Below are positions 4,554-38,882 of a DNA stretch of 64,000 nucleotides, one piece after another. Each line of letters starts with the position of its first letter. Within the stretch, counting starts at the first letter, position 1. The notes beneath the pieces are model-generated. The model worked only from the letters and a program-made list of their open reading frames with translations, ran no database searches and had not been told where the DNA came from. The stretch is from Alloascoidea hylecoeti. Taxonomy: Eukaryota. The translations under genes were made by a program, and so were the position numbers. The DNA lies in NCBI GenBank assembly GCA_001600815.1, contig BCKZ01000010.1:389527-453526 (forward strand), given 5' to 3'.

Positions 4554-6338
4554 ATGGCTATTTTCACAAAAAGGAATAAGTCCAAAGATAATGCTGAAAC
4601 TGGCAGCAATATATCGGTAGATTCCAATGCCAATTCCAATATAAAGGATGGAAACATTCATAGCTATCAGAAATCAGTTCCTTCTGAAACTGACAATGAA
4701 ATTGACTTACAAAAAGCCGCTGCATTACAGGAAGCGAAGTTGGTTACTGGTAGTGGAAATGTGATTACAGATGATGGAAAAGTTGTTATGGTAACTAAAG
4801 AGACTGATAATGTTTTCAGAGATCCAGAAATAGCAGAATATTATGCAAATATTTATGAAGAAACGAAATATGAATGTAGGCATGAGTTTGATCCATCCGC
4901 TGAATGGACTCCACAAGAAGAAAAACGATTGGTCAGAAAACTTGATGTTAGAGTATGTCTTTGGGCTTGTATCATGTTTTTTTCTCTACAACTGGATCGA
5001 GGAAATCTTTCTCAAGCAGTTTCCGATAATTTTTTAAAGGACCTAGGTTTAAATACAAACGATTTTAACACTGGTAACACAATTTTCTTATGTTGTTTCT
5101 TGGCAACGGAACTTCCATTACAATTAATTTCTAAGAAGATTGGCCCCGATAGATGGCTTCCTACCCAAATGATACTGTGGTCTATTGTTTCTGCCAGTCA
5201 GGCAGCTCTGAAGGGGAAGAAAAGTTTCTATGCAACTAGGGGTTTAATTGGCGGTCTAGAAGGTTCATTTATCGCTGAAATTGTATTATGGTTATCATAT
5301 TTTTATAATTCAAGAGAATTACCCGTAAGACTTTCTTTCTTTTGGACTTCTTTATCGGTGACTCAGATTGTATCATCGTTAGCTGCCTTCGGATTGCTTC
5401 GTATGAGAGGTCTTCACGGAATGGCAGGATGGAGATGGTTATTCTTGATTGAAGGCTTAATAACTGGTGCTGTTGGGTTTGCATCTTATTTCAACATGCC
5501 GGCTTCTGTGGTTCAAACGAAATCTTGGTTTAGACCAAATGGATGGTTCACAGATCGAGAAGTGAAAATTGCTGTCAATCGTATATTGAGAGATGATCCA
5601 ATGAAAGGACAGATGAATAATCGTCAACCTCTTGACTTTCGGGCAATATGGGACTCATTAAAGGATTTTGATTTATGGCCTTTATATGCCCTTGGATTGA
5701 TCGTTTATATTCCTAATTCTCCTGTCAGTACTTATCTTACTTTAACACTAAGAACTCTTGGATTCAGTACCTTTAATACCAACTTACTGACCATTCCGTC
5801 TAGCGTACTTCATATAATCATTCTCCTTTCTATTACAAAAACATCTCAAGTGATTGGTGAAAAGTCATTATTATCTTTAATTCAACCATTGTGGTTTCTT
5901 CCATGTCTCGCCGCTTTAAGATGGTGGCCTGGATCGCAGGTTGAAACATGGGAAACTTACGCTATTTTAGTATTACTTATTGGGGGTCCTTATATTCATG
6001 CAATATTGGTAGCCTGGTGTTCTGAAAATTCTAATACTGTTAGAACGAGAACAGTTTCTGCGTCCCTTTATAATATGTGTGTTCAGGCTGGAAATATCAT
6101 AGCTAACAATATATATCGACAGGACGATAGACCACTTTATCATAGAGGTAACACAGTACTGTTTGCAATTAATTTCATTTCAATTGCTTTATTATTATTG
6201 ACTAAAGTTTACTATGTTCAAAGAAATAAATGGAAGCAGAACAAATGGGATAGCATGACTAATGAGGAAAGATATATTTATCTTTCGACAACTAAGGATA
6301 AGGGAAATAAGAGACTAGAATTTAGATTTGCACATTGA
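4554..6338 (+). CDS. SOA1: MFS transporter, DAL5/allantoate permease family, SOA1 (YIL166C)-like sulfonate/sulfur-compound transporter
   Basis: 594 aa; YECRHEFDP..WT..EEK, QLDRGNLSQAVSDNFLKDL, GWRWLFLIEG, RILRDDP.KG.M.NRQ, C-terminal GNKRLEFRFAH. Confidence 0.8.
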   Translation: MAIFTKRNKSKDNAETGSNISVDSNANSNIKDGNIHSYQKSVPSETDNEIDLQKAAALQEAKLVTGSGNVITDDGKVVMVTKETDNVFRDPEIAEYYANIYEETKYECRHEFDPSAEWTPQEEKRLVRKLDVRVCLWACIMFFSLQLDRGNLSQAVSDNFLKDLGLNTNDFNTGNTIFLCCFLATELPLQLISKKIGPDRWLPTQMILWSIVSASQAALKGKKSFYATRGLIGGLEGSFIAEIVLWLSYFYNSRELPVRLSFFWTSLSVTQIVSSLAAFGLLRMRGLHGMAGWRWLFLIEGLITGAVGFASYFNMPASVVQTKSWFRPNGWFTDREVKIAVNRILRDDPMKGQMNNRQPLDFRAIWDSLKDFDLWPLYALGLIVYIPNSPVSTYLTLTLRTLGFSTFNTNLLTIPSSVLHIIILLSITKTSQVIGEKSLLSLIQPLWFLPCLAALRWWPGSQVETWETYAILVLLIGGPYIHAILVAWCSENSNTVRTRTVSASLYNMCVQAGNIIANNIYRQDDRPLYHRGNTVLFAINFISIALLLLTKVYYVQRNKWKQNKWDSMTNEERYIYLSTTKDKGNKRLEFRFAH

Positions 6339-7545
6339 TCATGTTTGCAACTTTGATTTTCATGCACTGTTAGATAGATTAAATATTGTTTTACCTCTAT
6401 ATATTGAATATTAGAACTCCCAGAAGGGGAGAAACTGTTTTAATCAGTAGAAACCTAACTAGCATGGCTGTGGAAGCTCTTTAAGCTCCAAGAAAGTCGC
6501 ATCAGGATCTAGAATTCTCGCATCTGGAATTATAAATGAAGTCGAAAATCCGAAATCCTTATATTATAATAAGCTTTGGATGTTTTACGAATTAAATCGA
6601 ATCTACAAGCCCTTTTTTCTTTCGTTGGGGGCCTTTTTATGGGGGAGTTCTACATCCTGATACGACCTTCGTGGAGCTACAGCTGAGCTTCCATATCCAT
6701 TTTAATGAGGGATTCTATTAACTAAAGCTGTTCTTCTCGCTCTGTGAGTTCAAATAGTGTTTGTGATATCTTCTAATATAATGGATGCTAGACTTTTTTG
6801 CAGCTAATTTTCTATGGCTTCAGTAATCACCAAAAGATACAGCGGCCTATTTCGAAATTAATATTGGTAAAAATAGATATAAGTTAGTTATAAATATATA
6901 ATCTATTTGTCAATCCTAATCAAAGTGGGAATCAAGATCAATGTCCAAATTTACTAATCCTAGACTTCTATTATCTTTAGTTGGTGAGATTCACTAGCCA
7001 TCCTATCACTTGTTTTGTTTCCATTTATTTCGTTGAACAAATGAATTTAGTCAATAATTGTAAAGGAAATGAAATTAATTGAAAACAATACTGGAGCTGT
7101 GTTAAATCTAGATGTACATACTATAATTATAAGACTCATATTGGAATGAAAAATACATTAGACAATATTGAATGAAAATAATTAAAAAAGTCTAGCTAAG
7201 AATACATACAATAAGAGATATCTCTGTACTCTTGTTTTTGCTTAAATTCTATCACTTGTGCCGTATTAACGTTAATACAATATATTTATAGTTGAAAGTC
7301 GCTTTTATATTTCAATTGTGATAACATCCATGGCTTTTTATGATTATAATTGTAATACTATGCTAATAAGTATAGTTGCAGTTCTAATATTTACACTTAA
7401 ACTTTGAAATCAAAAATACAAGATGGATATCGATAGAATTTTAATTTCAATAATTAAACAATTGATCATGACAAATTATCTATATAGCTAAGTTTGAACA
7501 AGCTTGTGCAATCGATTTGAATCATATATAATCATAATTTTAAAC

Positions 7546-8739: not shown

Positions 8740-9111
8740 TTTGCAAAAATCAGATGAGTGGAGGTAGTAAGAAACCGAACTTTTTTTCAATATATTACAA
8801 ATGAAATAGATATATTTTATTTTTATCAACGTCAGTATATAAATACAAGACAGTTGAGCTAGGATAGGGTCCCATTCCTAATCCTATTCTTTTATTGGTA
8901 AAATCCATTAAAAGTAATTATTTTTTTTTATTAGATTTTTTTTTTACTTTTTCAAGTTTTTAGATATTAGAATCCCCCAATCAATCTCATTTAATATGTG
9001 GTGTCCCTGCAAATCTAATATTTTTTCTTAGCTCTAGTGCCTTTTTGATTTTTTTATCTACTTTTGTAGAGAGTATTGCATCGCAAAACGTTTGTCGTTT
9101 GTCAACCAAAT

Positions 9112-9227
9112 GCTCCAGTGGCGCAGAGGTTAGCGCATCGTGCTTATAACCGTACAACGACGTTTATGTTAATGTCACGGTCGTGTGAGGAACGCGACGG
9201 TCGTGGGTTCAATCCCCTCCTGGAGCA
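9112..9227 (+). tRNA. tRNA-Ile(UAU) with 43-nt intron (9149-9191), copy 1
   Basis: Acceptor GCTCCAG/CTGGAGC-A; D-arm GCGC-AGAGGTTA-GCGC; anticodon stem TCGTG, loop CT-TAT-A; intron after position 37; T-loop GGTTCAATCC; T-rich terminator. Layout matches yeast intron-containing tRNA-Ile(UAU). Confidence 0.93.
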
Positions 9228-9328
9228 TATTTTTCTTATTTCTTGGTTTTCGAATTGTTACCTCCATTTATTTTTTTCGACATGCTTCTTTTAGATTACC
9301 ACTTTTAAATTTCAAAATGAGACCAAAT

Positions 9329-9444
9329 GCTCCAGTGGCGCAGAGGTTAGCGCATCGTGCTTATAACCGTACAACGACGTTTATGTTAATGTCACGGTCG
9401 TGTGAGGAACACGACGGTCGTGGGTTCAATCCCCTCCTGGAGCA
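9329..9444 (+). tRNA. tRNA-Ile(UAU) with intron, copy 2
   Basis: Same as copy 1 except the 3' anticodon strand is CACGA rather than CGCGA. Confidence 0.92.
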
Positions 9445-9536
9445 TATTTTTTTCTTATTTCTTGGTTCTCGAATTGTTACCTCCATTTATTTTTTTTCGA
9501 CATGCTTCTTTTAGATTACCACTTTTAAATTTCAAA

Positions 9537-9914
9537 ATGAGTATTAACAGTTATTTCACCCAGTATTACGGTAACCTAATAAGCTACCTCACCTCTTATG
9601 ATGTTGTTACATATATTCGTCTGGCTGCTATTGTAGGTGGATATGTCTTAGCCCGAAGGATTGCCGTTAAATATCTAGCCAACAAACAACTTGAAAGGCA
9701 AATAGCTAACGATAAAGTATCTCAAGAAAAGAAGCGCAAGGAAGCACTGATTCAAAAGCCCATCGAACCTACTACGGAAGCTTGGGGATGGGGTAAGAAG
9801 ACCCGAAGAAGAGTTAAACATCAACAAGCAGCCCTTGAAGATCAGATGCTAAACCAGGAAGTCTATGATGATAAAGAGGACAAAGACATTGAAGAATTTT
9901 TATTAAAAGACTAG
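9537..9914 (+). CDS. PGA2: Pga2-like ER trafficking protein
   Basis: ATG at 9537 (MSINSYF); IRLAAIVGGYVLAR TM segment, WGWGKKTRRRVK, acidic C-terminus DKDIEEFL. Confidence 0.85.
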   Translation: MSINSYFTQYYGNLISYLTSYDVVTYIRLAAIVGGYVLARRIAVKYLANKQLERQIANDKVSQEKKRKEALIQKPIEPTTEAWGWGKKTRRRVKHQQAALEDQMLNQEVYDDKEDKDIEEFLLKD

Positions 9915-23317: not shown

Positions 23318-24939
23318 TCAATTGATATTCTTAACTGCGTCCAATTTTTCTTTTAATAAAGCAGAATTTGAATCAATCCATTTCAAACTCTCTAAATGAG
23401 AATTTAAAATTGTAACAATAGAACTTAAAGTATTTCCATTATCTTCTGTATTATTACCATTATTTTTACCATCACTAGTATTCAAATGATTTATTGTATT
23501 TGAAACATCATTAATTTCAGTAATTAATGATGATAAATTAGATCCCATCGATTCTAATTTTTCATTTATAGTTTCTGCAACTCTATAAGCAGCTTCTCTT
23601 TCTTTATTTGATTCACTATTACCAGTTGTTGAACTCAACCCACCTAATAATTCATCTGCTTGTTTTTCATAATCATCTAATAACGTTTCAAGATCATCTT
23701 GTTGTTTTGAGACATAAGTAACCAATTGATTAACTTTACCTTGAGTTTGTTCAGCAGCTGTGACATCAGTATATAATTTAGAGATTTTATCACCATTCTC
23801 AACAAGTACACTGTCCCATGATGAAATCTGATTTGCTTGATTTGTGAATTCAGTTGTTGCTTTTGCTAATTGTGAGGTCCATTTTGAAATTATATCTTCA
23901 AGTGATTTATTACGAAGATTACTTGGATTTAATTGAGGTGTTATCTTATCAGTCTGGGTTGTTGTCGTTGTCGTTGTAGTAGTACTTAAAGCTGAGGTTG
24001 TTGGATTGGCTTTATCAGTTTTATCAGTTACATCTTTATTATCCGATTTTCCAAATGAAAAGCCACCACTAGCTGGCTTTTTATCATCTGCAGCTGGTTT
24101 CGTACCTAACGCAAAACCAACAGAAGGTTTAGCAGCATCTTTCTTATCATCTGCTTTTGCTCCAAAACTAAATCCACCAGCTGTCGCAGGTTTATCATCT
24201 TTTTTGGCTCCAAAACTAAATTCGCCAGTGGATACAGGTTTATCATCCTTTTTGGCACCAAAACTAAATCCGCCGGTGGATGCAGGTTTATCATCCTTTT
24301 TGGCACCAAAACTAAATCCGCCGGTGGATGCAGGCTTATCATCCTTTTTGGCACCAAAACTAAACCCCCCAGTTGTTGCAGGTTTATCATCCTTTTTGGA
24401 ACCAAGGCTAAATCCACTGGTAGTTGCAGGTTTATCATCCTTCTTGGCTCCAAATGAGAATGAACCTGACGTACTTGTTGATATTTTATTCTCAGCAGGT
24501 TTGGCGAAATTGAAAATACCACTACCTGTACTTCCTTTATTGTCAGTGCCAGTGGAAACGCCAGTAGTTGGGTTTAATGGTGATGGATTTGAAGGTTTAT
24601 TAAATGAGAAGCCCCCTGTTGTGTTCCCCGTAGTATTAGATCCAGTATTTGAATTGCTAGTACTTCCAAAATTAAAACCACCACCAGGTTTGGAAGCAGC
24701 AGCACCAAATAACCCACCCCCACCAGTATTACCAGAAGTAGTGGATGATCCAAACAACGAGCCTGGTGCTGCAGTAGTGGGTTTGGGTGAAAATAAACTT
24801 CCCGAAGAAGTTGTAGATGGAGTGTTGGAGTTTCCTCCAAAATTGAACAAGGGTTTATCTAATTAAAAAATGTCAGTCATCATACAATTGAATACAGTCA
24901 CCATCGCCTTCGCTTTAAATAAAACATACTTGATGCCAT
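23318..24939 (-). CDS. NSP1: FG-nucleoporin Nsp1; exon 1 24939-24930, intron 24929-24859
   Basis: MASNKPLFNFGG after splicing (GTATGT..CTGAC..TAG); FSFG repeats; coiled-coil NKSLEDIISKW, WDSVLVENGDKI, ILNSHLESLKWID. Confidence 0.95.
24150..24460 (-). repeat. 57-bp coding minisatellite (GGFSFGAKKDDKPA repeats of NSP1)
   Basis: About 5-6 near-identical 19-aa units. Confidence 0.9.
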
Positions 24940-25274
24940 TTTCGGTGAAATCTGGAGGTTATAGGTCAATTTTCATTTTTGGAGTCGATGATTATTTTAA
25001 ACACCCATACATAAACACGTGCTTACCAATTTGGATGTTCCGGAACATATATTCAGGATGCTACGGGAACAGTTTTAGGATACAAAAGATGATCCTTATG
25101 GTATATAATATCGAAATAGTGTTGAATAAAAATACTCCAAAGTGTAGCAGAAATGGAGGATACAAATATTTCCCTCAATACCTGATTCTACTGTTTTACT
25201 GGGTGTTTTTCCTAGCATAAACGTATACGTAATGTGAATATGTTATGGCATCAGACGACGCTCAATTGAAGAAC

Positions 25275-26461
25275 ACATAAAAACCCAAAATTCCCCCCAC
25301 CTTCTTTTCCTTTCAATTTTTTGTTATAGACAATTCTCAGATCAATTGGTACCACAAACTCTAAACATCTTACAAACATGGTTCACACTCTTATTTTAGT
25401 TCGTCACGGTCAATCTGACTGGAATGAAAAGAATCTCTTCACTGGTTGGGTCGATGTTCGTCTTTCTCCTACTGGTGAAAAGGAAGCACACCGTGCCGGA
25501 GAATTGTTGAAGGAATCTGGGTTGAAGCCTGATATTCTTTACACCTCTAAGTTATCCCGTGCTATTCAAACTGCTAACATTGCTTTGGATGTCTCCGATA
25601 GACTTTGGATTGATGTTAAGAGAACATGGAGATTAAACGAACGTCATTATGGAGATCTACAAGGAAAAAATAAAGCAGATGCTTTAGAAAAGTTTGGGCC
25701 TGAATTATTCAAGACCTATAGAAGATCATTTGATGTTCCGCCACCAGTTATTCACGATGACAATGAGTTCTCCCAAGCCAATGATCCAAGATACGCCGAT
25801 GTTCCAGCAGATGTTTTACCAAAAACTGAATCATTAAAATTGGTTATTGAACGTTTATTACCATACTGGGAATCTGATATTAAACCAGATATATTATCAG
25901 GTAAAACTGTTTTAATTGCTGCTCATGGTAATTCATTACGTGCTTTGGTTAAAACATTAGATGGAATCAGTGATGCTGATATTGCCAACTTGAATTTACC
26001 CACTGGTATTCCATTAGTTTATGAATTAGATGATGATTTAAAACCAATTAAACCATCCTATTATTTGGATCCTGAGGCCGCTGCTGCTGGTGCTGCTGCT
26101 GTCGCAGCTCAAGGACAAAAGAAATAGATTTTCTCATGTTATATATTTTACTTAACTATTTAAATTTTAATTATATATTTACGATAAATTGATGTAATTC
26201 TATTATTAACTAAAGAAAATTTCTAACCAATGAGGTTTTGCATCTTCGAATCTCCGAATTTAAGTGTCTCGAATATACCGACTGGTAGGGGATGATAATA
26301 ATTATAAGAAAGCATTACCAGAAATTTTGGGTTTCTCCTAGGCTGTTGTAAAAATGATGATAAAAGGTATAAAATTTCTATATGTAACATAATGAGATGA
26401 TCTGAAATTTTGAAGAATTAGAAAACAGACGTATATCTTTTTGTTTATATGTCAAGTTCAT
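25275..26461 (+). repeat. Inverted repeat, left arm (~1187 bp, contains GPM1)
   Basis: Reverse complement of 32038-33227; identity begins at ACATAAAAACCC and ends at ATGTCAAGTTCAT. Confidence 0.97.
25378..26127 (+). CDS. GPM1: Cofactor-dependent phosphoglycerate mutase, copy A
   Basis: [27 protein letters not shown]-terminal [12 protein letters not shown]. Confidence 0.98.
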
Positions 26462-27299
26462 TGTCAAAGTAGACAACGTTATATTTATGGAGACCAGAAT
26501 TATCTTCAATCTGAAGTTATGGAAAGTTACACCGGTACAATAGTAGTAGTGACTATGTATATATACTAACAATATAGTAATGGTTGTAAATTGATGTTGG
26601 AAAACAGCGTTGCTCAATAAATTTTATGTAGATTCTTAGTTTTGGAGGGAATTATACGTCTGTTTATGTTTTAATTCTGTTTACCTAGGTAGTAATAAGA
26701 CTTCAATTAGTTATACGGAATATGAAACACTAAGAATATGACCTTAAAATTGTGCTCATCAATACATGTATTGCCTTCTCTGATTTGCATTTCCTCTAAT
26801 TAAGGAAAGAGAAGAATTAATGAAATGACATAAAAGCAGGCGACAACAAAAGATTATCTAAATATATTCCAAACTAAAAGGGAAAAAAACCTTTTTAGCT
26901 TCTTTTCTCAATCTTGCTTCATCCAAAGTTAACAATCTTTTACTGAAGTAGAATATCGATTAGACTGGGTTTCATCTATAAAGAATATCTAACTTCAATC
27001 GTTTACCAGATATTTTACTTTTAAGAAGATATCACTATTTACTATAGTTAGTTAAAACCCATCATCTGAGAAAACTTTTGAAGCCAAAAAGGAAAGAACA
27101 GAATAAATTGATCATTTTAAATCTCAAGTTTGAAAGAAACTATTTTCATACTACATATACATACACACACACCAACTATTTTTAATCAACCGGCTACAGG
27201 TCTAGTTGAAATAAAAATTATATAAAGAAAAGGAAATAAAATGGTAAATATAGAATAAATAAAAAAAATGGGATCGATTTCAAGTTTTCAGTTTATCTT

Positions 27300-28209
27300 T
27301 TATGTTTTATCTTTGATATAAAATTACAAATGAGGATTTCATCTTGTGAATCTTATGGTCGCAGAAGTTTCAACATTGTGTTTAATATCGAAATTGAGGT
27401 TTTTGGGTTTGACGTTGATCAAGTTCATTAGCAATGTTCAAAATCTGGAAATGATTTTGTATTCCCATTACATGATTGGAAGTCATCTCCAGATCTTTGC
27501 AATCCTAATTTATTTAAACTGAAATCCAAATTTTTATGATCATTTGCGTTATTATTGGTATTTAATATCAAATTGTATCACCATTTAGATTTCTATTAAC
27601 GATTGTATTTCATTTGCAGCCATAACTAGACACATTCATGCTTAAATTTTGATTCATTTCTATTGGTTCATTCTTTCTTTTATTTTAAACATGTATTCTA
27701 CAGAGAAGATTATAGCAATTAAGGATGTATTGTAAGTGATATAACTTTAACCCATACCAAATTACAATCCTTTTATTATTATAGTTAAGCTCATTAATGA
27801 TTATAAGATCTTATAATATTTATATAATTAGAACTTTGGATATGCAAGAACCCAATTATATAATGTGTGAAATACTAAACACTATGTCGAGCGTTGGGCT
27901 GATGCTGAATTGGCACGTTCAAGTTGAGAAGTGTACTGGGAACTCAAGTTCTTAAGTTAGCTTCCAATCTTGTTTCAATTATTTGTTTATTAACTAACGA
28001 CATTATTATTTTTTCAAATTCTTCAAATGATTATTTAAACTCATTAGAATTGTTATCAGTTGAACTTGAACTTGAACTTGAACTTGAACTTGAACTTGAA
28101 CTTGAACTTGAATTTGATGTTGATTCACGATTTGTATCTTGAACAAGAGATTTATGGTCAGCCAATGTAGTTGGCTAATAAGTAAGTTTTGGTATTGTTC
28201 AGTAATCAT
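27300..28209 (-). pseudogene. Probable decayed gene of unknown family with a poly-Ser tract
   Basis: ATG 28209, then a shifted frame reading IPKLTY*PTTLADHKSLVQDTNRESTSN(S)n..EFK*SFEEFEKIIMSLVNKQIIETRLEANLRT*VP with scattered stops; distal boundary uncertain. Confidence 0.4.
28060..28112 (+). repeat. (GAACTT)n microsatellite
   Basis: About 8 perfect hexamer units. Confidence 0.9.
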
Positions 28210-28509
28210 GGATTTATAAACAAGCTGCTATTTTCATGATTTTAACTGACTATAAAAATCACCTTCTATATGTAAAAATATTCCTGAAGGTTTTACCATA
28301 TTTGATTGTGGATATTATGTATATTAAAGTAAACTAAAGAATAAAAACAAGAAAGGTTTATGTTTATATTTAAGGAAAGTTAAATATTATCCGAGTAAGA
28401 GACTCATGACAGACTGTTATAGGTATATCATAATTATACTCGAATATTATTTCTATTAGCTTTAGATCTCCATAATCACCAAATTTTGGTAGTAGATGGC
28501 GGTGGAGAA

Positions 28510-29787
28510 CTAACTGGAAGAACATTTCTTGGCTCCAGGAACTACACTCTCTCCTTTAGGAATAACTTGAATATTGGAATCCTCTGGAACTGCTGAAAAA
28601 TTAGCCTGAGCAATTGAAACCTCGTTACTGTCGATATCAAAAACCAGATAGGCTGATCTCAAAAATGTATCACCTAGTATAACTTGGCCAACAGTCTTCT
28701 GAAGACCAAAATAATATTTGGGGTTGATAGGATCCCAGTTAATGAAATCACTTTGTGGTACCGGAATGATGAGCGTTGAAACTGGGACTTTGATAGTAGC
28801 ACATCCGAAATTAAAGTCAACAGTTCTTGGATCCGATGCTAGTTCAGTGGCGTTTACTAAGATCATCCCTCCCAATGGATTATAATGTATTCCCAGAGAT
28901 GTTAATAGTGGCACTATAACTTCAGTTGGTAATTGAGTAACAGTAGTGCCACTATCTAAAATAGCGGTCTCTTCAGTTGTAGTTGTAATGCCATCAAAGG
29001 TAACACTGGTTAAGTTAGCACCCCAAAATGATGGATTTGAAGGCATCGGGAAAGTATATAAATCTCCAGTATATAAATTACTATCAACTCCACCAAATAT
29101 AAGGTTTCCTGAGTTAGAATCTGTAGAGTTCAAAAAAAGAGAAAAAGCAGCAGATTGTGTAATTCCTTGGTCAACCAGAGAATGTTGATAATTACGGAAA
29201 CCCCAAATTTCACCACTTCCCTTAGCACCAGTATTACCATCAAACCCAAGACCAAAAATCCCAGGTATACGATTTGCTCTGGATTTTGATAATCCCAAGG
29301 TATAACCTTTAACTGTATGCCCACCAATAGATACATCATCTTTAAACCATTCGCCCCATCCAACAGTCGCATCTGCATAAATATTCTCAAAATTATAATT
29401 AATAAGATCATAAGTACTAGATAGTAATGGGTCAAAAGCACCTAGTGCACATACTGGACACTTAGGGTTCACACGTTCTTTAGAAGTAACCCATAAATCA
29501 CTTGATCCGGTATCGACAAGAACATATACCTTTTGAGGAGGATTTCCAACTTCAATGTTAATCCCATATGATAAACGAGAATTAGCGGGTGAAATATCTG
29601 TATTAACTACTCCAGGAATTGAAGCACCGAGTACTCTTGAATAATTTGTTGTTGCTGTAGTATCCCTTTCAAAATGAAGCTGTTGTACACCCGGAATATT
29701 AGCTCCATGAATAGTTGGAATCAAGCACAAGGATGCAATTGATATCAATTTAATAACTCGACAATAGAATTGATTTTTCATGATCAT
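28510..29787 (-). CDS. Secreted pepsin-like (A1) aspartic protease, SAP/yapsin/Bar1-like, no obvious GPI tail
   Basis: Signal peptide; catalytic DTGSSDLWV and ILDSGTT; flap YADAT; ILGDTFLRSAYLVFD. Confidence 0.92.
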   Translation of the reverse strand: MIMKNQFYCRVIKLISIASLCLIPTIHGANIPGVQQLHFERDTTATTNYSRVLGASIPGVVNTDISPANSRLSYGINIEVGNPPQKVYVLVDTGSSDLWVTSKERVNPKCPVCALGAFDPLLSSTYDLINYNFENIYADATVGWGEWFKDDVSIGGHTVKGYTLGLSKSRANRIPGIFGLGFDGNTGAKGSGEIWGFRNYQHSLVDQGITQSAAFSLFLNSTDSNSGNLIFGGVDSNLYTGDLYTFPMPSNPSFWGANLTSVTFDGITTTTEETAILDSGTTVTQLPTEVIVPLLTSLGIHYNPLGGMILVNATELASDPRTVDFNFGCATIKVPVSTLIIPVPQSDFINWDPINPKYYFGLQKTVGQVILGDTFLRSAYLVFDIDSNEVSIAQANFSAVPEDSNIQVIPKGESVVPGAKKCSSS

Positions 29788-31038
29788 CTTAATTCTTAGA
29801 ATTGCAAAAAAAAAAAAACAGATTTCAACGGTATTTAATATCGGTAAAATTTAAAGTTGAACAATTGTAGATTCTATTTAAGGTTGTGACCTGCCCACAA
29901 ACTTAAATATATCACACAATATACTATATAATAACTAATCATAACTTTAAACACCACATTTCTTTTGTTGTGACCATATTATAAAATAATATAGATATAT
30001 CACACAATTGTCATTATTAAGTAAGTATACATTTGTATTACGTGACAGCTATTTAAAAGATAAGGTAATTAGTTCAATACTCATGCATACTACCTAGATT
30101 ATGCAAGTCGCTTATTTTCCTTATTTGGTAGTATGTTATATTTAAGCATTTTTTAAGGGTGGTAAAAATCATATTTAAAGTGTAAGTTAATAATGCGGGA
30201 AAAAATTCAAAACTGTATTAATGTTAATATATTTATCACGATAACAAAGGCACATCATATCGTATTAAGCTTGCTCTCTTAACTCGACTAATTTTTGCAT
30301 GGATTGCATGATTTTACTCAACTGTTTGATTTGGACAAACCTTTCATTTCAAGTTGAATAACAAGAATAAATCTGGCCGGGAAAATAATCCCATCGGTTA
30401 ATTTTCATTATCTTCTTGATGTATTTCTATTTTAGAAAATTTATTGGAATACAATCTGGTATAACTTATGGAAAAATATACTGAAGCAGAAATGTCAAGT
30501 TTCTACTACTCATACTCGGTCACCTAAAATTGTTACTGTGATGACTCAAGAATGGTTTGTTCTAATTTAAAATTTCGATCTTATTGTGAGGTAATCTTCT
30601 TTTCCTCAAATCGGTATAGCATCTTTTCGATTGCCGAAAGGCCTGTTGAATCAGTTTCTGTAGTTAAATTATCATTGAGATATATTAACTTTTTGGTAAT
30701 CAATCTAAGATATTATCTAATCTTAGTAACAGGCTTCGTTGTGTAATAATCGTATGTATGGATAGTTTTTAATAATCACACGTATGGATGGTTTATAATA
30801 ATTGCTTCTAAATACTTAAGTGTTGATAAATATTAAAAATCTATATTAAAAAGTATCAGATTATGAGTTGTGATGTTATATTTACAGGTGTAAAAAATAT
30901 GTAATAATCTGCAGAAATGGCTCATATTATGTATCGTTTATGATACATGTTTGTCAAAAAGTTAATCAACTAGAATAAATATACAGAAAAGAAAAAGATT
31001 GTCAAGAAGACAATAAGAATGTCCGGTAAGGTTCACAG

Positions 31039-31171
31039 TTAGAGGTTATTCCCAAGTTTTTAGACTCTTTAACTTTATAGGTTATTCCTAAATTGAAAGA
31101 TTATTCTTAAACTTAAAGGTTATTCCTCAGCTTAGAGGTTATTCCTAAGTTTTATAGGTTATTCCTAAGTT
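31039..31171 (+). repeat. 19-20 bp minisatellite, core AGGTTATTCCTAAG
   Basis: GGTTATTCC/GATTATTCT cores at 31044, 31080, 31099, 31118, 31137, 31157. Confidence 0.85.
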
Positions 31172-31799
31172 GTTTCGATATAGTTTGAAAAGTATAAAAA
31201 ATAGTATAGATGACTATATTTTTAACAAAACAGGTACCGGTACATTACAAATACATGTACTAACACGAATTACAAAATCAACATCTCCTTTAATCTTTCT
31301 TAATCTTCATATAAATAAGATTTGTTCTCGATATTTTTGATTTTGCGGCCATCTAAACCTCTTCAAACTTAGATAAAATCTTCTGACAATTAAAAGAGTG
31401 AATTCCAATCCTTATAAAGCCCAAACAAATATTCTTGGGGGTCATAGTCAAGGCGCTTTCCTTCTGGTATATTGTCCCGAAATCCTATTTTAGGGCAGAT
31501 AATTTATGGATTTGCTTCAATTTTTTCGTCACTTCTTTAGCAGATTAGCATATGCATATGTATATTTAAGGTTACACATAATGCATTAATTACTGCACCT
31601 CATTATAGAAAAAGAACAAATTATATAAAAATTTAAGAAGTATCTATTTCCAAAATGAATATAAGAATGATCCACAATTATCTATTACGTCATTAGCTCT
31701 ATTAATAACTAATGTTTAATACTTTAAAGCTCAGCATCGCAGTCCGTCTAAGGGATTAAAATAAGACAGCATGCAGGAAAATCATTTAGGAAATGGGGG

Positions 31800-32170
31800 T
31801 GCTGTATTCAAATCCAGAAGAATAAACTACATAGCTGGTTTCATTAATGGTCCAGAACAATTGATTCAAATATCATTAGACTTAGGTGTAACCACACCGT
31901 GAACAAAAGTCACGCCTCTAAATACCATAAGAAACCCCAGGAATTATGTCCATGTGGTAAAATTGATACAATTGACCACCGACTACTTAAATGTGATCAA
32001 TACAGTTATTCTCAAGATAGGCTAAATGTACGTTACGATGAACTTGACATATAAACAAAAAGATATACGTCTGTTCTCTAATTCTTCAAAATTTCAGATC
32101 ATCTCATTATGTTACATATAGAAATTTTATACCTTTTATCATCATTTTTACAACAGCCTAGGAGAAACCC
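31800..32170 (+). mobile_element. 3' relic of a non-LTR retrotransposon ORF2 (C-terminal CCHC zinc knuckle)
   Basis: ATG-less open frame 31848-32054: WSRTIDSNIIRLRCNHTVNKSHASKYHKKPQELCPCGKIDTIDHRLLKCDQY, preceded by SWFH*. Fits the WF..R..i.RLR.gH..C.CG..eti.H.l..C..y tail of RNase H-bearing LINEs; LYLLSSFL follows in frame past stops. Confidence 0.72.
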
Positions 32171-33227
32171 AAAATTTCTGGTAATGCTTTCTTATAATTA
32201 TTATCATCCCTACCAGTCGGTATATTCGAGACACTTAAATTCGGAGATTCGAAGATGCAAAACCCCAGTTGGTTAGAGATTTTCTTTAGTTAATAATAGA
32301 ATTACATCAATTTATTGTAAATATATAATTAAAATTTAAATAGTGTGTAAGTAAAATATATAACATGAGAAAATCTATTTCTTTTGTCCTTGAGCTGCGA
32401 CAGCAGCAGCACCAGCAGCAGCGGCCTCAGGATCCAAATAATAGGATGGTTTAATTGGTTTTAAATCATCATCCAATTCATAAACTAATGGAATACCAGT
32501 GGGTAAATTCAAGTTGGCAATATCAGCATCACTGATTCCATCTAATGTTTTAACCAAAGCACGTAATGAATTACCATGAGCAGCAATTAAAACAGTTTTA
32601 CCTGATAATATATCTGGTTTAATATCAGATTCCCAGTATGGTAATAAACGTTCAATAACCAATTTTAATGATTCAGTTTTTGGTAAAACATCTGCTGGAA
32701 CATCGGCGTATCTTGGATCATTGGCTTGGGAGAACTCATTGTCATCGTGAATAACTGGTGGCGGAACATCAAATGATCTTCTATAGGTCTTGAATAATTC
32801 AGGCCCAAACTTTTCTAAAGCATCTGCTTTATTTTTTCCTTGTAGATCTCCATAATGACGTTCGTTTAATCTCCATGTTCTCTTAACATCAATCCAAAGT
32901 CTATCGGAGACATCCAAAGCAATGTTAGCAGTTTGAATAGCACGGGATAACTTAGAGGTGTAAAGAATATCAGGCTTCAACCCAGATTCCTTCAACAATT
33001 CTCCGGCACGGTGTGCTTCCTTTTCACCAGTAGGAGAAAGACGAACATCGACCCAACCAGTGAAGAGATTCTTTTCATTCCAGTCAGATTGACCGTGACG
33101 AACTAAAATAAGAGTGTGAACCATGTTTGTAGGATGTTTAGAGTTTGTGGTACCAATTGATCTGAGAATTGTCTATAACAAAAAATTGAAAGGAAAAGAA
33201 GGTGGGGGGAATTTTGGGTTTTTATGT
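32038..33227 (-). repeat. Inverted repeat, right arm (~1190 bp, contains GPM1)
   Basis: Reverse complement of 25275-26461. Confidence 0.97.
32375..33124 (-). CDS. GPM1: Phosphoglycerate mutase, copy B (protein identical to copy A)
   Basis: Same 249 aa; one synonymous difference seen (TTA vs TTG). Confidence 0.98.
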
Positions 33228-33979
33228 AATTAATATGTATACCATTATAGTGATCGTCTGTGGATCACCACATTCCCGCTGTGGGGTGGCCTACTAGCTG
33301 TGTTTCATGATAGATTTTCATTTTCCTTTGTACTAAGTTTGTAGATTGATCGATCACCCATTGTTGGACAAGCCAGCCTCTTTATTGGGTAATATCACTT
33401 AAAAGGTTATGCAATATTAATGGATCGGAAAACCTCGAGATCTCTCACAAATATTAATTTTTCGAGAAAAGGCTTACAGTGTGTGTAAAACTAGGATTAG
33501 GCATATGCATATATTACTGGTGGTACTAATCCCAAAATCAAACACAACAATTGTAGAGCAATCAATCTGTTAAACAGTATAACGCCCTGACAGCCTTTAG
33601 ACCATGACACAAGGAACACCACCACTGAGGAAAGACTAGAAGTAGGACAGAGTTTGACTTGTTCAGTTCATACTCACACGAAATCTGATGAGACAATTGT
33701 ACTGTTCGTATCTATAATCGAATAGGTACCAAATCGTAAAAACAAAAACTACGATACAAATCAAGCAATAACACCCATAAAATAATCATGGAGGAACAAG
33801 AAATCCTTCTTTCATGCGAAAAAACTGTGTTATAATTAGTGCCCCATAAATAAATATAAAGCTTTATAAGCTCTTACATAATCTAATTAACATCCATTTT
33901 CACTTCTTCACTACTTTCTTACTTAATTACCACTTTCACTATTCTCTCTTATATTTTCTGACGGTACTCATTTTTTCAG

Positions 33980-36256
33980 ATGTCTCTGTCTAAATGGCAG
34001 GATTCAAGCAAACCCCCTTCTCTAACAGATACAAATGATGGTGCGCATTTAGGATTAGATTCTGTATCCGTGGAACTAGAAAATAGAATCCGAAATAAAC
34101 AATCTATCACTTTTGGAAATAATACAGAAGATTCCAAAACTCAACCCACGACACATTTATCTAAAACACAACCACAGATTATATCAGCAAAAATGCCACA
34201 AATAATAGACTTAGAAGCCCAGATATCAACAAGTTTACCTCATGAACATTCTTATACAAATTATAGAAATGAAGATGGCTCTCTTCTGAAACGTGTTTAT
34301 CCACGCAATTCAATTAATAAAATGGGTGCAACAATAGAAAGGTGGACTTCAAATCTTCATCATTTAACTAATAATATAAACTGGCATGTATTTTCCAATC
34401 CAAATGTCTTGGGTACGACTTCTGAAATTTATTATTCCGTTTTTAAACCACCTCCTAATTTGATGCTCTCATATTCGGACCCGTATTCAGTTGATTCCGA
34501 ATTCAACAATAATGACTCAATAGTAACCCAAAATCAATTTAATTCAATCATAAATGATGTTATCTTTGCAATTGAAGAACTACATATAAAACCACAAAGA
34601 ATATCAGCTGGATCTTCTGGTTCATATTTCATTTATAATTCAAGCAATAAAATAGTTGGTGTTTTTAAACCAAAAGATGAAGAACCTTATGGCCCATTAA
34701 GTCCAAAATGGACTAAATGGATTCATCGAAATCTATTTCCCTGTTTTTTTGGTAGAAGTTGTCTTATACCAAATCTTGGTTATATTTGTGAATCCGCCTC
34801 AAGTTTATTAGATAGGCAACTGAAAACTTTTATAATACCATACACTGATACAGTTTTTTTATCAAGTGATAATTTCTACTATAACTTTTGGGATAGATTA
34901 GAGATGAAAATGCATTCAAGGAATAGAAAATTACCTGCAAAAGTTGGTAGTTTTCAGTTATTTTTAAATGATTATGTCGGTGCTGATGTTTTCTTAAGAA
35001 AGTATCCTTTACCTGTCGATTTACAATCTAATCGGTATAGCGATATTTCTCCTGATTTAATAGATTTAGAAGATGATGAGGATTTTACGGATACAAATGG
35101 GAATCCTGTATTTAAATGGACACCGAAAGTTCTTCAACAATTCAGAGAAGAAGTTGAAAAATTGGTAATATTAGATTATATTATGAGAAATACCGATCGT
35201 GGCCTTGATAATTGGATGCTTAAAATTGAATGGAAAAAAATCAATAATAAATTAAAACCAATCATCAAATTGGGTGCAATTGATTCCGGATTATCATGGC
35301 CATGGAAACATCCGGATGAATGGCGTTCATATCCATTTGGTTGGTTATTTTTACCATTATCGATTATTGGCCAACCATTTTCTCAAAATTCACGTAATCA
35401 TTTCTTACCATTATTATGTTCCTCAAAATGGTGGGAAGAAAGTAGTTTATTATTTCGTGAAATGTTTAGTCGTGATTCAGAATTTAAAGAAAGAATGTGG
35501 AGAAGGCAATTAGCTGTTTTGAAAGGCCAAGCATTTAATGTTGTTGAAACTTTAAAGAGCTATGAGCAAGGACCATTAGAATTAGCAAGAAGAACAAGAG
35601 TTATGATTTGGGATGATTTTATGGACATACCTGTTCATATACCATTACATGATATGTCGAATGCTATTAATACTCCATTGGACTTTAATGAGGAGTTTGA
35701 TTCAGTTCATAGGGAAAACGCACCTGAGCAGCCAATTACGACCGATGAAAATGATAATATTACTAGCAATAATACATTAAAAGTATCTAAAGGTAAACCA
35801 TCACCAAATATGAAACAACATGGGTTCAACACAAGCCCAAAATCACCATCAAGAGCAAGAGCAAGGGCATCATCATCATCATCACATCGTATTGGAAAAC
35901 GTCCCAAAAAACCAAGAAAAAGTAGTGGTAGTTCATTAACTTTAGAAGCAAGATATAGAGATTTGGAATCAAATAGGCAAAAATCTCAAGAATTAATTGG
36001 TATTTGGCCTGAACTTATCGCAGAAACTCCAAATCCGAAGACAAAAAATAAAAATAAAAATAAAAAGAAAAAGTTTTTAAATATAAATATCAATGAAAAT
36101 AGTGACGAAGAATATAATACTTTATTGGCTGAACATCATAACAATAATGATGTTGGATTTATGTTTGCCGAAGAAACTGAATCTGCCTCGAAAAGAGTTA
36201 TTGTTGAAAGAATACAAACAGTTACTTCAAAACCACCTGTATTCACTTGGTTTTAA
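33980..36256 (+). CDS. LSB6: Type II phosphatidylinositol 4-kinase
   Basis: PQRISAGSSGSYF, VFKPKDEEPYG, PCFFGRSCLIPN, LDYIMRNTDRGLDNW, KHPDEWRSYPFGW, C-terminal PVFTWF. Confidence 0.96.
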   Translation: MSLSKWQDSSKPPSLTDTNDGAHLGLDSVSVELENRIRNKQSITFGNNTEDSKTQPTTHLSKTQPQIISAKMPQIIDLEAQISTSLPHEHSYTNYRNEDGSLLKRVYPRNSINKMGATIERWTSNLHHLTNNINWHVFSNPNVLGTTSEIYYSVFKPPPNLMLSYSDPYSVDSEFNNNDSIVTQNQFNSIINDVIFAIEELHIKPQRISAGSSGSYFIYNSSNKIVGVFKPKDEEPYGPLSPKWTKWIHRNLFPCFFGRSCLIPNLGYICESASSLLDRQLKTFIIPYTDTVFLSSDNFYYNFWDRLEMKMHSRNRKLPAKVGSFQLFLNDYVGADVFLRKYPLPVDLQSNRYSDISPDLIDLEDDEDFTDTNGNPVFKWTPKVLQQFREEVEKLVILDYIMRNTDRGLDNWMLKIEWKKINNKLKPIIKLGAIDSGLSWPWKHPDEWRSYPFGWLFLPLSIIGQPFSQNSRNHFLPLLCSSKWWEESSLLFREMFSRDSEFKERMWRRQLAVLKGQAFNVVETLKSYEQGPLELARRTRVMIWDDFMDIPVHIPLHDMSNAINTPLDFNEEFDSVHRENAPEQPITTDENDNITSNNTLKVSKGKPSPNMKQHGFNTSPKSPSRARARASSSSSHRIGKRPKKPRKSSGSSLTLEARYRDLESNRQKSQELIGIWPELIAETPNPKTKNKNKNKKKKFLNININENSDEEYNTLLAEHHNNNDVGFMFAEETESASKRVIVERIQTVTSKPPVFTWF

Positions 36257-37577: not shown

Positions 37578-38882
37578 ATGAAAATAAATATTTTATTAGC
37601 GGCTGCTCTCAGTTCAGTTGGAAGTGTTTTGGGTGGTGTTTATCATGTTGATGTTCGAAACAACATTGAACAAACAACTAGCAAATTTACAGAGGTTACT
37701 GATTGGGCTGAATATTTGCATTATAGTGCTAAAATTACTAAATTAAAATATACTCCTTCAGAGTACTATGATGATGATGATTATGAACTATTGAATTTAA
37801 TTAGCTTAACAGAAGCGGAATCCATTTCAGCTTCAGATTCCTCCACTTCTGCTACAACGGCCAGCTTATCGACTAGTCCTATATTTGATGTTCTTAACGG
37901 TTATTACTTTTCTACTATTACTGTTGGTACTCCTCCACAAATATTCACAGTTGCATTGGATACCGGATCTTCTAATTTGTGGGTTCCAGGAAAAACATGT
38001 AATTCATCTGCCTGTCTCCATCATAACAGATATGACAAGGACCGATCCACTACCTATGTAAAGAATGGAACAGACTTTGCCATTCGATATATCAGTGGTT
38101 CAATGGAAGGTATTATTGATCAGGATGTGGTAAATATTGCTGGGGTGGCCATTCCAAATCAAGGTTTTGCAGAATCTATTGTGGAACCTGGTCCATCTCT
38201 TACTGTTATTTTATACGATGGAATTCTTGGTCTTGGTTTTGAAGCTGCTGCATTGGGAGTTGTTCCTCCACATGTTAATGCCTTTAATCAAGGGTTACTT
38301 ACTGAAAGTAAATTTGCATTTGCTTTTAATGACATTTATAAAGATGGATTATTATCTGAAGGTAGTTTTTCATTTGGAGGTTATGATGAAACAAAGTATA
38401 CAGGAGATCTAGTAGAAATCCCAGTTCAAAAAGCTCCTTACATTAATGAATACATTTATTGGCAAGTCGAACTTCAAGGTGTAAGCGTCCCCGGTTTGAA
38501 TTTAGATTACACTAATGAGCCATTAGCCGCTGCTGTTGATACTGGAAGTGCAGGATTGGTTTTACCACAAGAAATATCAATTCCTCTTCACGAAAAGCTT
38601 GGTTTTACTCTCATAACCGAACCTTATCCTCTTAATGTTATCAATTGCACATTGATTTCAGGGTTGCCTGATATCAGTTTTAAATTAGGAGGCAAGGAAT
38701 TGACTATATCACCAAAAAGTTACACCTTTAATATACTTGATCAAGTTTGTATTTCTGCAATTATTGGTGTGCCAAATGTAGCAGGTCTTAAAATTGCTGT
38801 TCTTGGTGACGCTTTTCTCCGTAATTATTATTCAATTTATGATTGGGAAAAAAAGACTATTAGTTTAGGACAGAGGAGTTGA
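37578..38882 (+). CDS. Pep4/cathepsin D-like aspartic protease, divergent paralogue
   Basis: Signal peptide; GTPPQ.F.V.LDTGSSNLWVP, C.S.AC..H.RYD, KNGTDFAIRY, DGILGLGF, second Asp in VDTGSA, LGDAFLRNYYSIYD. Confidence 0.9.
   Translation: MKINILLAAALSSVGSVLGGVYHVDVRNNIEQTTSKFTEVTDWAEYLHYSAKITKLKYTPSEYYDDDDYELLNLISLTEAESISASDSSTSATTASLSTSPIFDVLNGYYFSTITVGTPPQIFTVALDTGSSNLWVPGKTCNSSACLHHNRYDKDRSTTYVKNGTDFAIRYISGSMEGIIDQDVVNIAGVAIPNQGFAESIVEPGPSLTVILYDGILGLGFEAAALGVVPPHVNAFNQGLLTESKFAFAFNDIYKDGLLSEGSFSFGGYDETKYTGDLVEIPVQKAPYINEYIYWQVELQGVSVPGLNLDYTNEPLAAAVDTGSAGLVLPQEISIPLHEKLGFTLITEPYPLNVINCTLISGLPDISFKLGGKELTISPKSYTFNILDQVCISAIIGVPNVAGLKIAVLGDAFLRNYYSIYDWEKKTISLGQRS

Follow-up and report, generated by a model that had tools for sequence, protein, structure and literature searches.

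Does a pair of near-identical phosphoglycerate mutase genes facing each other across a few kilobases mark a segment that is switched by inversion, or does it merely record a recent duplication? We addressed this question at a GPM1 locus in a 64,000-nt stretch of the Alloascoidea hylecoeti genome (GCA_001600815.1, contig BCKZ01000010.1, positions 389,527 to 453,526), hereafter the window; the source genome is a budding yeast assembly of 24.8 Mb in 136 contigs. An initial annotation of the window had described two GPM1 genes as inverted repeats enclosing an "accessory cassette", and had proposed an invertible, flip-flop locus in which selection on a glycolytic enzyme keeps the repeats alike. Our analysis suggests that the GPM1 pair is probably a single recent local inverted duplication, passive in nature, which may invert rarely.

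Two GPM1 genes with identical products lie in convergent inverted arms

The two arms were found to be 98.995% identical over 1194 aligned columns, the differences being 7 substitutions and 3 indels, and are separated by a spacer of 5570 nt in a window without a single N. The near-identical inverted copies of the initial annotation are thereby borne out, with their inner ends moved from 26461 and 32038 to 26464 and 32035. Each arm indeed carries a complete GPM1 open reading frame (ORF), and the two, in convergent orientation (25378–26127 on the forward strand, 32375–33124 on the reverse strand), encode the same 249-aa protein, 79–81% identical to those named yeast phosphoglycerate mutases that ranked best. 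Only two differences, at 25370 (5' leader) and 26028 (synonymous), fall into the outer 880 nt of the arms, which include a fully identical tract of 657 nt; the inner 310 nt hold 5 substitutions and 3 indels. Identity reaches the outer edge, the first 95 nt being free of differences. The second-longest ungapped inverted pair in the window measures 49 nt.

The inverted repeat is supported by three sequencing studies

Five of the ten sequencing runs listed contain the stretch wholly or partly, and they come from three studies. The Logan contigs (not the reads) of four runs were compared, using 31 of 377 contig pieces and 40 of 80 rows of differences. The assembly may derive from run X1; X3 and X4 belong to the two other studies, and X5 is too thin for use. 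In X1, X3 and X4, each of the four junctions has a unique contig that stops a short way into the arm, and in X1 the arm contigs have a depth of 109–111 versus 55–68 for unique DNA. The inner-arm contig of X1 reaches 1.64x, compared with 1.60x predicted if the differences between the arms are real. With the read-depth check called for by the initial annotation now run, showing roughly double arm depth in X1 and four unique junctions in three runs, the GPM1 inverted repeat is genuine and not a copy-number artefact.

Two arm copies, each joined at its 3' end to one end of the interior, imply an inverted repeat regardless of the assembler, provided that the interior is one piece. The latter leans on the assembly, because run contigs break at the microsatellite at 28060–28117 and near 29050–29085. 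No run contig compared spans an arm or phases across the 657-nt identical tract, and short-read assemblers have inflated or mis-oriented yeast inverted repeats before (PMC6692504, PMC5010909). Given the junctions and depths above, it is nonetheless extremely unlikely that an assembly artefact produced the repeat; such an error could affect the orientation of the interior alone. Short-read orientation at the GPM1 locus is not to be trusted.

Junction polarity points to a local inverted duplication

The inner junctions differ in what crosses them. A relic of a dispersed repeat of ~330 bp, perhaps a solo long terminal repeat or a miniature inverted-repeat transposable element, runs across the left one (profile E 2.3e-9); its family has 30 genome matches including the query, at 68–96% identity (L048, L143–L153). 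The profile comprised 12 copies collected through the arm part alone, one of which, lacking the anchor motif, was dropped from the interior-only test. Its match (26516–26323) extends 52 nt beyond the left arm into the interior. When scoring was confined to the interior side of the left junction (66 nt), 7 of 11 repeat copies matched and at most 8 of 300 shuffles did as well, whereas the interior-only test on the right side matched 0 of 11 copies (best, 16 of 300 shuffles). The right arm abuts a relic resembling a long interspersed nuclear element (LINE), which is cut before the end seen in a copy on scaffold C31. Since the dispersed repeat continues across the left junction and is cut on the right, the left inner junction is old and the right one new.

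Arm homology ends abruptly. No homology shoulder was detected outside the arms, where the outer flanks score 27 versus a shuffle mean of 31, and the inner side scores 45 versus a shuffle mean of 38 and maximum of 57. The upstream DNA of GPM1 paralogues gave no signal for the polarity of the outer junctions.

A local inverted duplication is marked by a parental junction beside a new one, by sharp ends and by an intact or decaying paralogue close by, and the GPM1 pair shows these features. We infer that one recent local event copied 1.19 kb, comprising the core promoter, GPM1 and 3' DNA that ends midway through the old dispersed repeat, and that the copy was placed, inverted, 5.6 kb away against the cut LINE-like relic. 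The route would most likely have been template switching during repair or replication, with the left copy as parent. On this account the arms would be alike because they are young, and would now form a passive substrate for non-allelic homologous recombination, with conversion or inversion of the interior possibly occurring on occasion. Both the mechanism of origin and the young age of the arms are deduced from junction structure and divergence.

Similar inverted pairs recur in this genome

We surveyed 664 kb, namely 464 kb of the locus's own scaffold (C10) centred on the window and 200 kb of C1, for inverted pairs with a minimum length of 400 nt and at most 70 kb apart. Nine inverted alignments at seven loci were recovered, the GPM1 pair included, at 75–99% identity. 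A convergent nitroreductase pair, 92% identical, 2.7 kb apart and accompanied by a third copy (L198–L199, C10:377972–387840), is the layout of the GPM1 pair at an older stage. An internal fragment of an MLP1/TPR-like gene has an inverted copy of ~2 kb, 99% identical over 1183 nt and 60.6 kb away (C10:467813–469871 and 530486–532424; L161, L167). An ATO/FUN34 inverted pair (78%) and two further older pairs were also recovered, together with a 2.1-kb retroelement palindrome (96%; L161–L162, C10:472796–474891) made up of two reverse-transcriptase fragments that almost adjoin; the palindrome is either a genuine fold-back or an assembly artefact. Among pairs of this now familiar kind the GPM1 pair is the youngest, and it is not a singular structure.

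The MLP1-like pair, enclosing some 60 kb, is itself a larger candidate invertible segment. Within the window, an old inverted pair (6154–6387 and 6893–7093; 70% over 236 columns, ~500 nt apart) lies at the 3' end of an MFS transporter gene, and 220 nt are duplicated directly in tandem at 9105–9541 (97.7%).

GPM1 has been duplicated often in this genome: further copies, two intact and three broken, are present elsewhere. The intact paralogues on C6 (L004, C6:754387–755133) and C25 (L006, C25:50532–51275) have 90% and 67% protein identity. The broken copy on C17 (L003, C17:139976–140882) covers −83 to +90 around the ORF and ends in an A-rich run, so that it looks like a processed retrocopy; those on C9 and at C10:22031 are 5'-truncated relics.

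Age of the arms and divergence between isolates

The inner non-coding DNA differs by ~1.6% substitution between the arms, versus ~0.2% between isolates in the interior, and fourfold-site divergence of the other GPM1 copies amounts to 19% (C17), 40% (C6) and 61% (C25). At roughly neutral sites, the difference between the outer (2/297) and inner (5/310) parts of the arms was not significant (p = 0.45). X4 has one extra base at 33203, in the right arm and not in the left, and further arm changes specific to a strain lie on contigs of ~1.5x depth, as expected for one arm if these are read as popped-bubble contigs. No strain-specific change was shown in both arms in the runs compared, the sole candidate, 25596 in X4, being an allele of the C17 paralogue. 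Selection keeping the arms alike, as proposed by the initial annotation, could not be substantiated: the outer and inner parts do not differ significantly, the MLP1-like fragment is equally 99% identical, and a third intact GPM1 exists on C6.

Two apparent signals were set aside. Mosaic inner-arm contigs were rejected as evidence of conversion and read as popped bubbles, and apparent single-nucleotide polymorphisms in the arms at 25596–26131 were dropped as mostly C17 paralogue alleles, which 25724 in X3 is not.

Several observations weigh against a single, passive duplication from the left copy. The 657-nt tract is fully identical, and with one assembly at hand conversion may have contributed. 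Both GPM1 genes are intact in all three well-covered runs, as selection on dosage would give. The arms of the flip/flop (FF) region of Saccharomyces are alike up to their edges after 17 Myr (PMC9731477). The survey of inverted pairs was centred on the window, and the 200 kb of C1 gave one old pair only (75%); N occurs at two matching places in both copies of the MLP1-like pair, whose identity is assembly-based. Isolates also differ more in the interior than in the flanks, an excess for which a passive duplication does not account. In X4, 4937 nt of interior hold 10 substitutions and 5628 nt of flanks hold 0 (p = 0.0005 raw, ~0.007 after a rough neutral-site correction), and X3 has 9 in ~5150 nt versus 3 in 4422 nt (p = 0.12). 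Finally, on L074, a yeast-like contig from a metagenome, GPM1 adjoins NSP1 (the left neighbour of the locus) in tandem orientation, which is the order of the right copy and not the divergent order of the left.

Most of these points bear on the alternative of an FF-type locus, in which an older pair is kept alike by repeated, dosage-favoured gene conversion while the interior toggles and both orientations segregate. Such a locus would account for the identical tract, the two differences in the outer 880 nt, the two intact ORFs in a pair found in three studies, and the interior divergence, and it has precedents (PMC9731477, PMC5010909). X3 and X4 share 7 substitutions and 2 indels relative to the assembly, all within 28216–32032, while the flanks are nearly identical. 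As these sites are in linkage and little of the interior is under constraint, the excess amounts to a single observation and not to ten. A divergent haplotype block would account for it, as might exchange for which the arms serve as anchors. Because the interior varies more between isolates than the flanks, the FF-type alternative keeps its weight. At the same time, the outer/inner gradient is not significant, differences private to one arm occur in X4 with no strain-specific change shown in both, and a 5.6-kb inversion should not decouple the interior from flanks 1–2 kb away. We regard an FF-type locus as unlikely, though not negligible.

The order on L074 bears on a second alternative, a variant of the local duplication that differs in origin alone. 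Here the ancestor would have had a single GPM1 on the side of the right-hand LSB6-like gene, tandem to NSP1, and staggered breaks would have turned the interior around one time as 1.19 kb was duplicated. A staggered-break inversion would give the same inner junctions, including an intact left one, and would yield the tandem order of L074, which a later rearrangement fits as well. The size and one-sidedness of the copy match Drosophila cases of up to ~1.9 kb (PMC1885836). Against it, a continuation of the LINE-like relic was found in neither outer flank, and CACGTG stands on the NSP1 side, a weak point; PFK lacks CACGTG too. L074 is, moreover, a single distant outgroup. It came from a metagenome scan for the same or a sister species, in which 80 loci were kept and the top identity was 75%; the loci inspected are bacterial except L074, the one locus of 80 with a window neighbour (NSP1) in yeast-like synteny, and no locus of the 80 had two GPM1 copies among the ORFs listed. 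P0001 was rejected as an outgroup, being identical to the C6 copy. GPM1 and NSP1 may also be neighbours in Candida albicans, an arrangement that could not be confirmed. Overall, a staggered-break origin seems unlikely but worth keeping in view, and a single recent duplication with the left copy as parent remains our preferred reading, to which the adjacency of GPM1 and NSP1 on L074 and, weakly, the CACGTG upstream of the left copy also lend support.

The interior is one protease gene among relics

Features of the locus are collected in Table 1. The GC content of the interior is ordinary, 39 of 92 5-kb bins of the scaffold being lower, and its sole ORF of at least 100 aa is an intact aspartic protease, as the initial annotation had it. 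The protease is ~50% identical to the three closest paralogues compared and belongs to a multigene family with many loci; a second aspartic protease gene lies at 37578–38882, 4.4 kb to the right of the repeat.

The remaining content is degenerate, and "accessory cassette" overstates one protease and relics. A pseudogene reported in the interior was not confirmed: no protein homologue was present among the 963 ORFs of the own-genome loci compared, and two fragments had no Pfam match. A Pfam search of four window fragments, covering interior relics and pseudogene candidates, likewise returned nothing. The minisatellite described as palindromic does exist as an array, with weak hairpin-forming capacity, a figure that comes without a shuffle control. 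Its unit was rejected as a telomere repeat, with 8 genome matches at ≤1 mismatch, of which 4 belong to this array and 4 are scattered, and 2 for the control. The relic at 31302–31494 is one we take to be of pogo/Fot1 type, without a Pfam match. The LINE relic stood as far as a repeat is concerned, matching copies on C31 (~70% identity) and C21; the LINE label itself, without Pfam match, is our assumption from the CCHC motif. The C31 LINE-like 3' end (L047, C31:163041–164004) is itself inverted-duplicated (347 nt, 90%, ~300 nt apart), and X3 has a 53-nt deletion at 27203–27255.

Table 1 Features of the GPM1 locus and its flanks (window coordinates)
Feature	Position	Strand	Remarks
NSP1 nucleoporin	23321..24939	-	left flank; Pfam Nsp1_C; ATG about 24939
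Divergent NSP1/GPM1-left upstream DNA	24943..25274		outside arm; one CACGTG at 25016; unique in genome
Left arm	25275..26464	+	core promoter (TATA-like), leader region of 103 nt, GPM1 and 337 nt of 3' DNA
GPM1, left copy	25378..26127	+	249 aa, intact; Pfam His_Phos_1
Relic of ~330-bp dispersed repeat	26323..26516	-	runs across left inner junction
Interior	26465..32034		5570 nt, 30.6% GC
(TTGAAC)n microsatellite	28060..28117	+	9.7 copies
Aspartic protease	28510..29787	-	intact, 425 aa; catalytic motifs DTG and DSG; N-terminus hydrophobic by eye
Short dispersed repeat relic	30700..30862		3 other loci, 70-73%
19-bp minisatellite	31066..31172	+	5.2 copies; array at no other genome site
DNA-transposase-like degenerate multi-copy relic	31302..31494	-	9 matches, 69-73%
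LINE-like 3' relic with CCHC knuckle	31756..32034	+	cut at right inner junction
Right arm	32035..33227	-	probable daughter copy; dispersed repeat truncated at inner end
GPM1, right copy	32375..33124	-	249 aa, intact; protein identical to left copy
Divergent GPM1-right/LSB6 upstream DNA	33228..33979		unique; without CACGTG
PI4-kinase, LSB6-like	33980..36256	+	right flank; Pfam PI3_PI4_kinase; name from initial annotation

An inversion would be close to silent

NSP1, which probably has a short first exon followed by an intron, and the PI4-kinase gene begin within 0.34 and 0.75 kb of the arms, respectively. The locus lies mid-scaffold, with C10 extending for more than 340 kb on either side. The TATA-like element at the start of the arm resembles those of ENO and PGK. 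CACGTG, a motif linked to glycolytic regulation, occurs upstream of the left GPM1, PGK and ENO and not upstream of the right GPM1 or PFK; with this exception, promoter words common to PGK, ENO, PFK and the C6 copy of GPM1 favour neither outer flank.

The geometry put forward by the initial annotation is right, in that a crossover within the arms would turn the interior around with both GPM1 genes still intact. After a flip each promoter would still drive the same protein, because the arms exclude the upstream DNA and carry identical ORFs, and the protease would retain 2.2 kb of upstream and 2.0 kb of downstream DNA inside the segment. Judged from this layout, inversion would be close to silent, and presumably neutral. 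The idea of a switch thus finds no support: no promoter–ORF link changes, the sole intact interior gene lies 2.0 and 2.2 kb from the arms, and neither side resembles a silencing domain.

A regulated, programmed switch outside MAT, causing phase variation of the protease, is accordingly hard to credit. Its geometry is like that of flip/flop loci with one inverted repeat (PMC6692504). No promoter crosses an arm, however, and one interior ORF reaches 100 aa. Where a repression site beside an arm would be sought, the locus has housekeeping genes on either side and no telomere or evident centromere at one side. Even the FF region was stable over ~53,800 mitoses and 950 meioses (PMC9731477). The initial annotation was correct that no MAT genes are visible inside: none was found in the interior by a profile search aimed at MATalpha1 only (not a1, a2 or alpha2), whose single match lies on C8. 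That match (L200, C8:368524–368721) has a neighbour which we take to be the 3' end of SLA2.

Inverted-repeat centromeres generally have gene-free arms and a gene-free core, whereas three intact ORFs occupy the arms and core here. A centromere of this kind, formed in situ around a unique core, is therefore very improbable, even though arm and core sizes are of the same order as known ones (inverted repeats of 2.0–2.7 kb in Komagataella phaffii), mobile-element relics lie inside, and unusual base composition is not required (PMC5010909). Besides the intact genes in the arms, the protease in the core and the starts of NSP1 and LSB6 close to the arms, the GC content is ordinary, longer ORF-free stretches exist elsewhere on the scaffold, and the arms have no counterparts on other scaffolds apart from GPM1 itself and the short repeat. 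The MAT flip/flop and the inverted-repeat centromere thus each lack a defining feature at this locus.

Comparison with known systems

The GPM1 inverted repeat appeared in no title or abstract opening of the literature searched, a set with few subscription papers and no supplements. GPM1, NSP1 and LSB6 are not mentioned in the main text of PMC5010909, nor are these genes or SFH1 in PMC12711049. Comparable inverted repeats do invert in yeasts (PMC9731477, PMC5010909), and natural isolates vary in orientation both at the FF region (PMC9731477) and at the centromeric repeats of K. phaffii, which measure 2–2.7 kb (PMC5010909). Passive inversion of the GPM1 interior is, by analogy, plausible.

One-sided inverted copies of unique genic DNA below 2 kb, with sharp ends, are likewise known as inversion-breakpoint duplications (Ranz et al. 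2007, PMC1885836); those are Drosophila cases at large inversions with mostly degenerate copies, whereas both GPM1 copies are intact. The MAT flip/flop system FF1/FF2 (Krassowski et al. 2019, PMC6692504) shares one inverted repeat flanking an invertible segment. Centromeres of K. phaffii (PMC5010909) and other yeasts (PMC12711049) share kilobase arms around a unique core, but arms and core of the GPM1 locus are protein-coding.

As a young inverted duplication, the GPM1 pair would be ordinary, yet a clean and dated case in a genome where such pairs arise often. A close likeness is to the FF region on Saccharomyces chromosome XIV, with 4.2-kb arms, a 24-kb interior and sporulation genes (Salzberg et al. 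2022, PMC9731477), which has been conserved for 17 Myr, with homogenisation proven and both orientations known. Near-identical, gene-containing inverted arms enclose a unique interior in both, and inversion would in either case be near-silent non-allelic recombination. The GPM1 locus differs in its 1.19-kb arms, its glycolytic gene and its record from one species; recurrence and homogenisation are not shown here. It is improbable that the locus is a second budding-yeast FF-type locus, on a glycolytic gene and in a distant lineage, where conversion and repeated inversion of the protease segment, with the arms as exchange points, give the interior its own genealogy. Were both orientations to segregate and the arms to be homogenised, the locus would offer a compact second test of why FF-type repeats stay alike, with enzyme dosage as an obvious, testable candidate cause. 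If flipping occurs at all, the GPM1 locus would work like a passive FF-type repeat.

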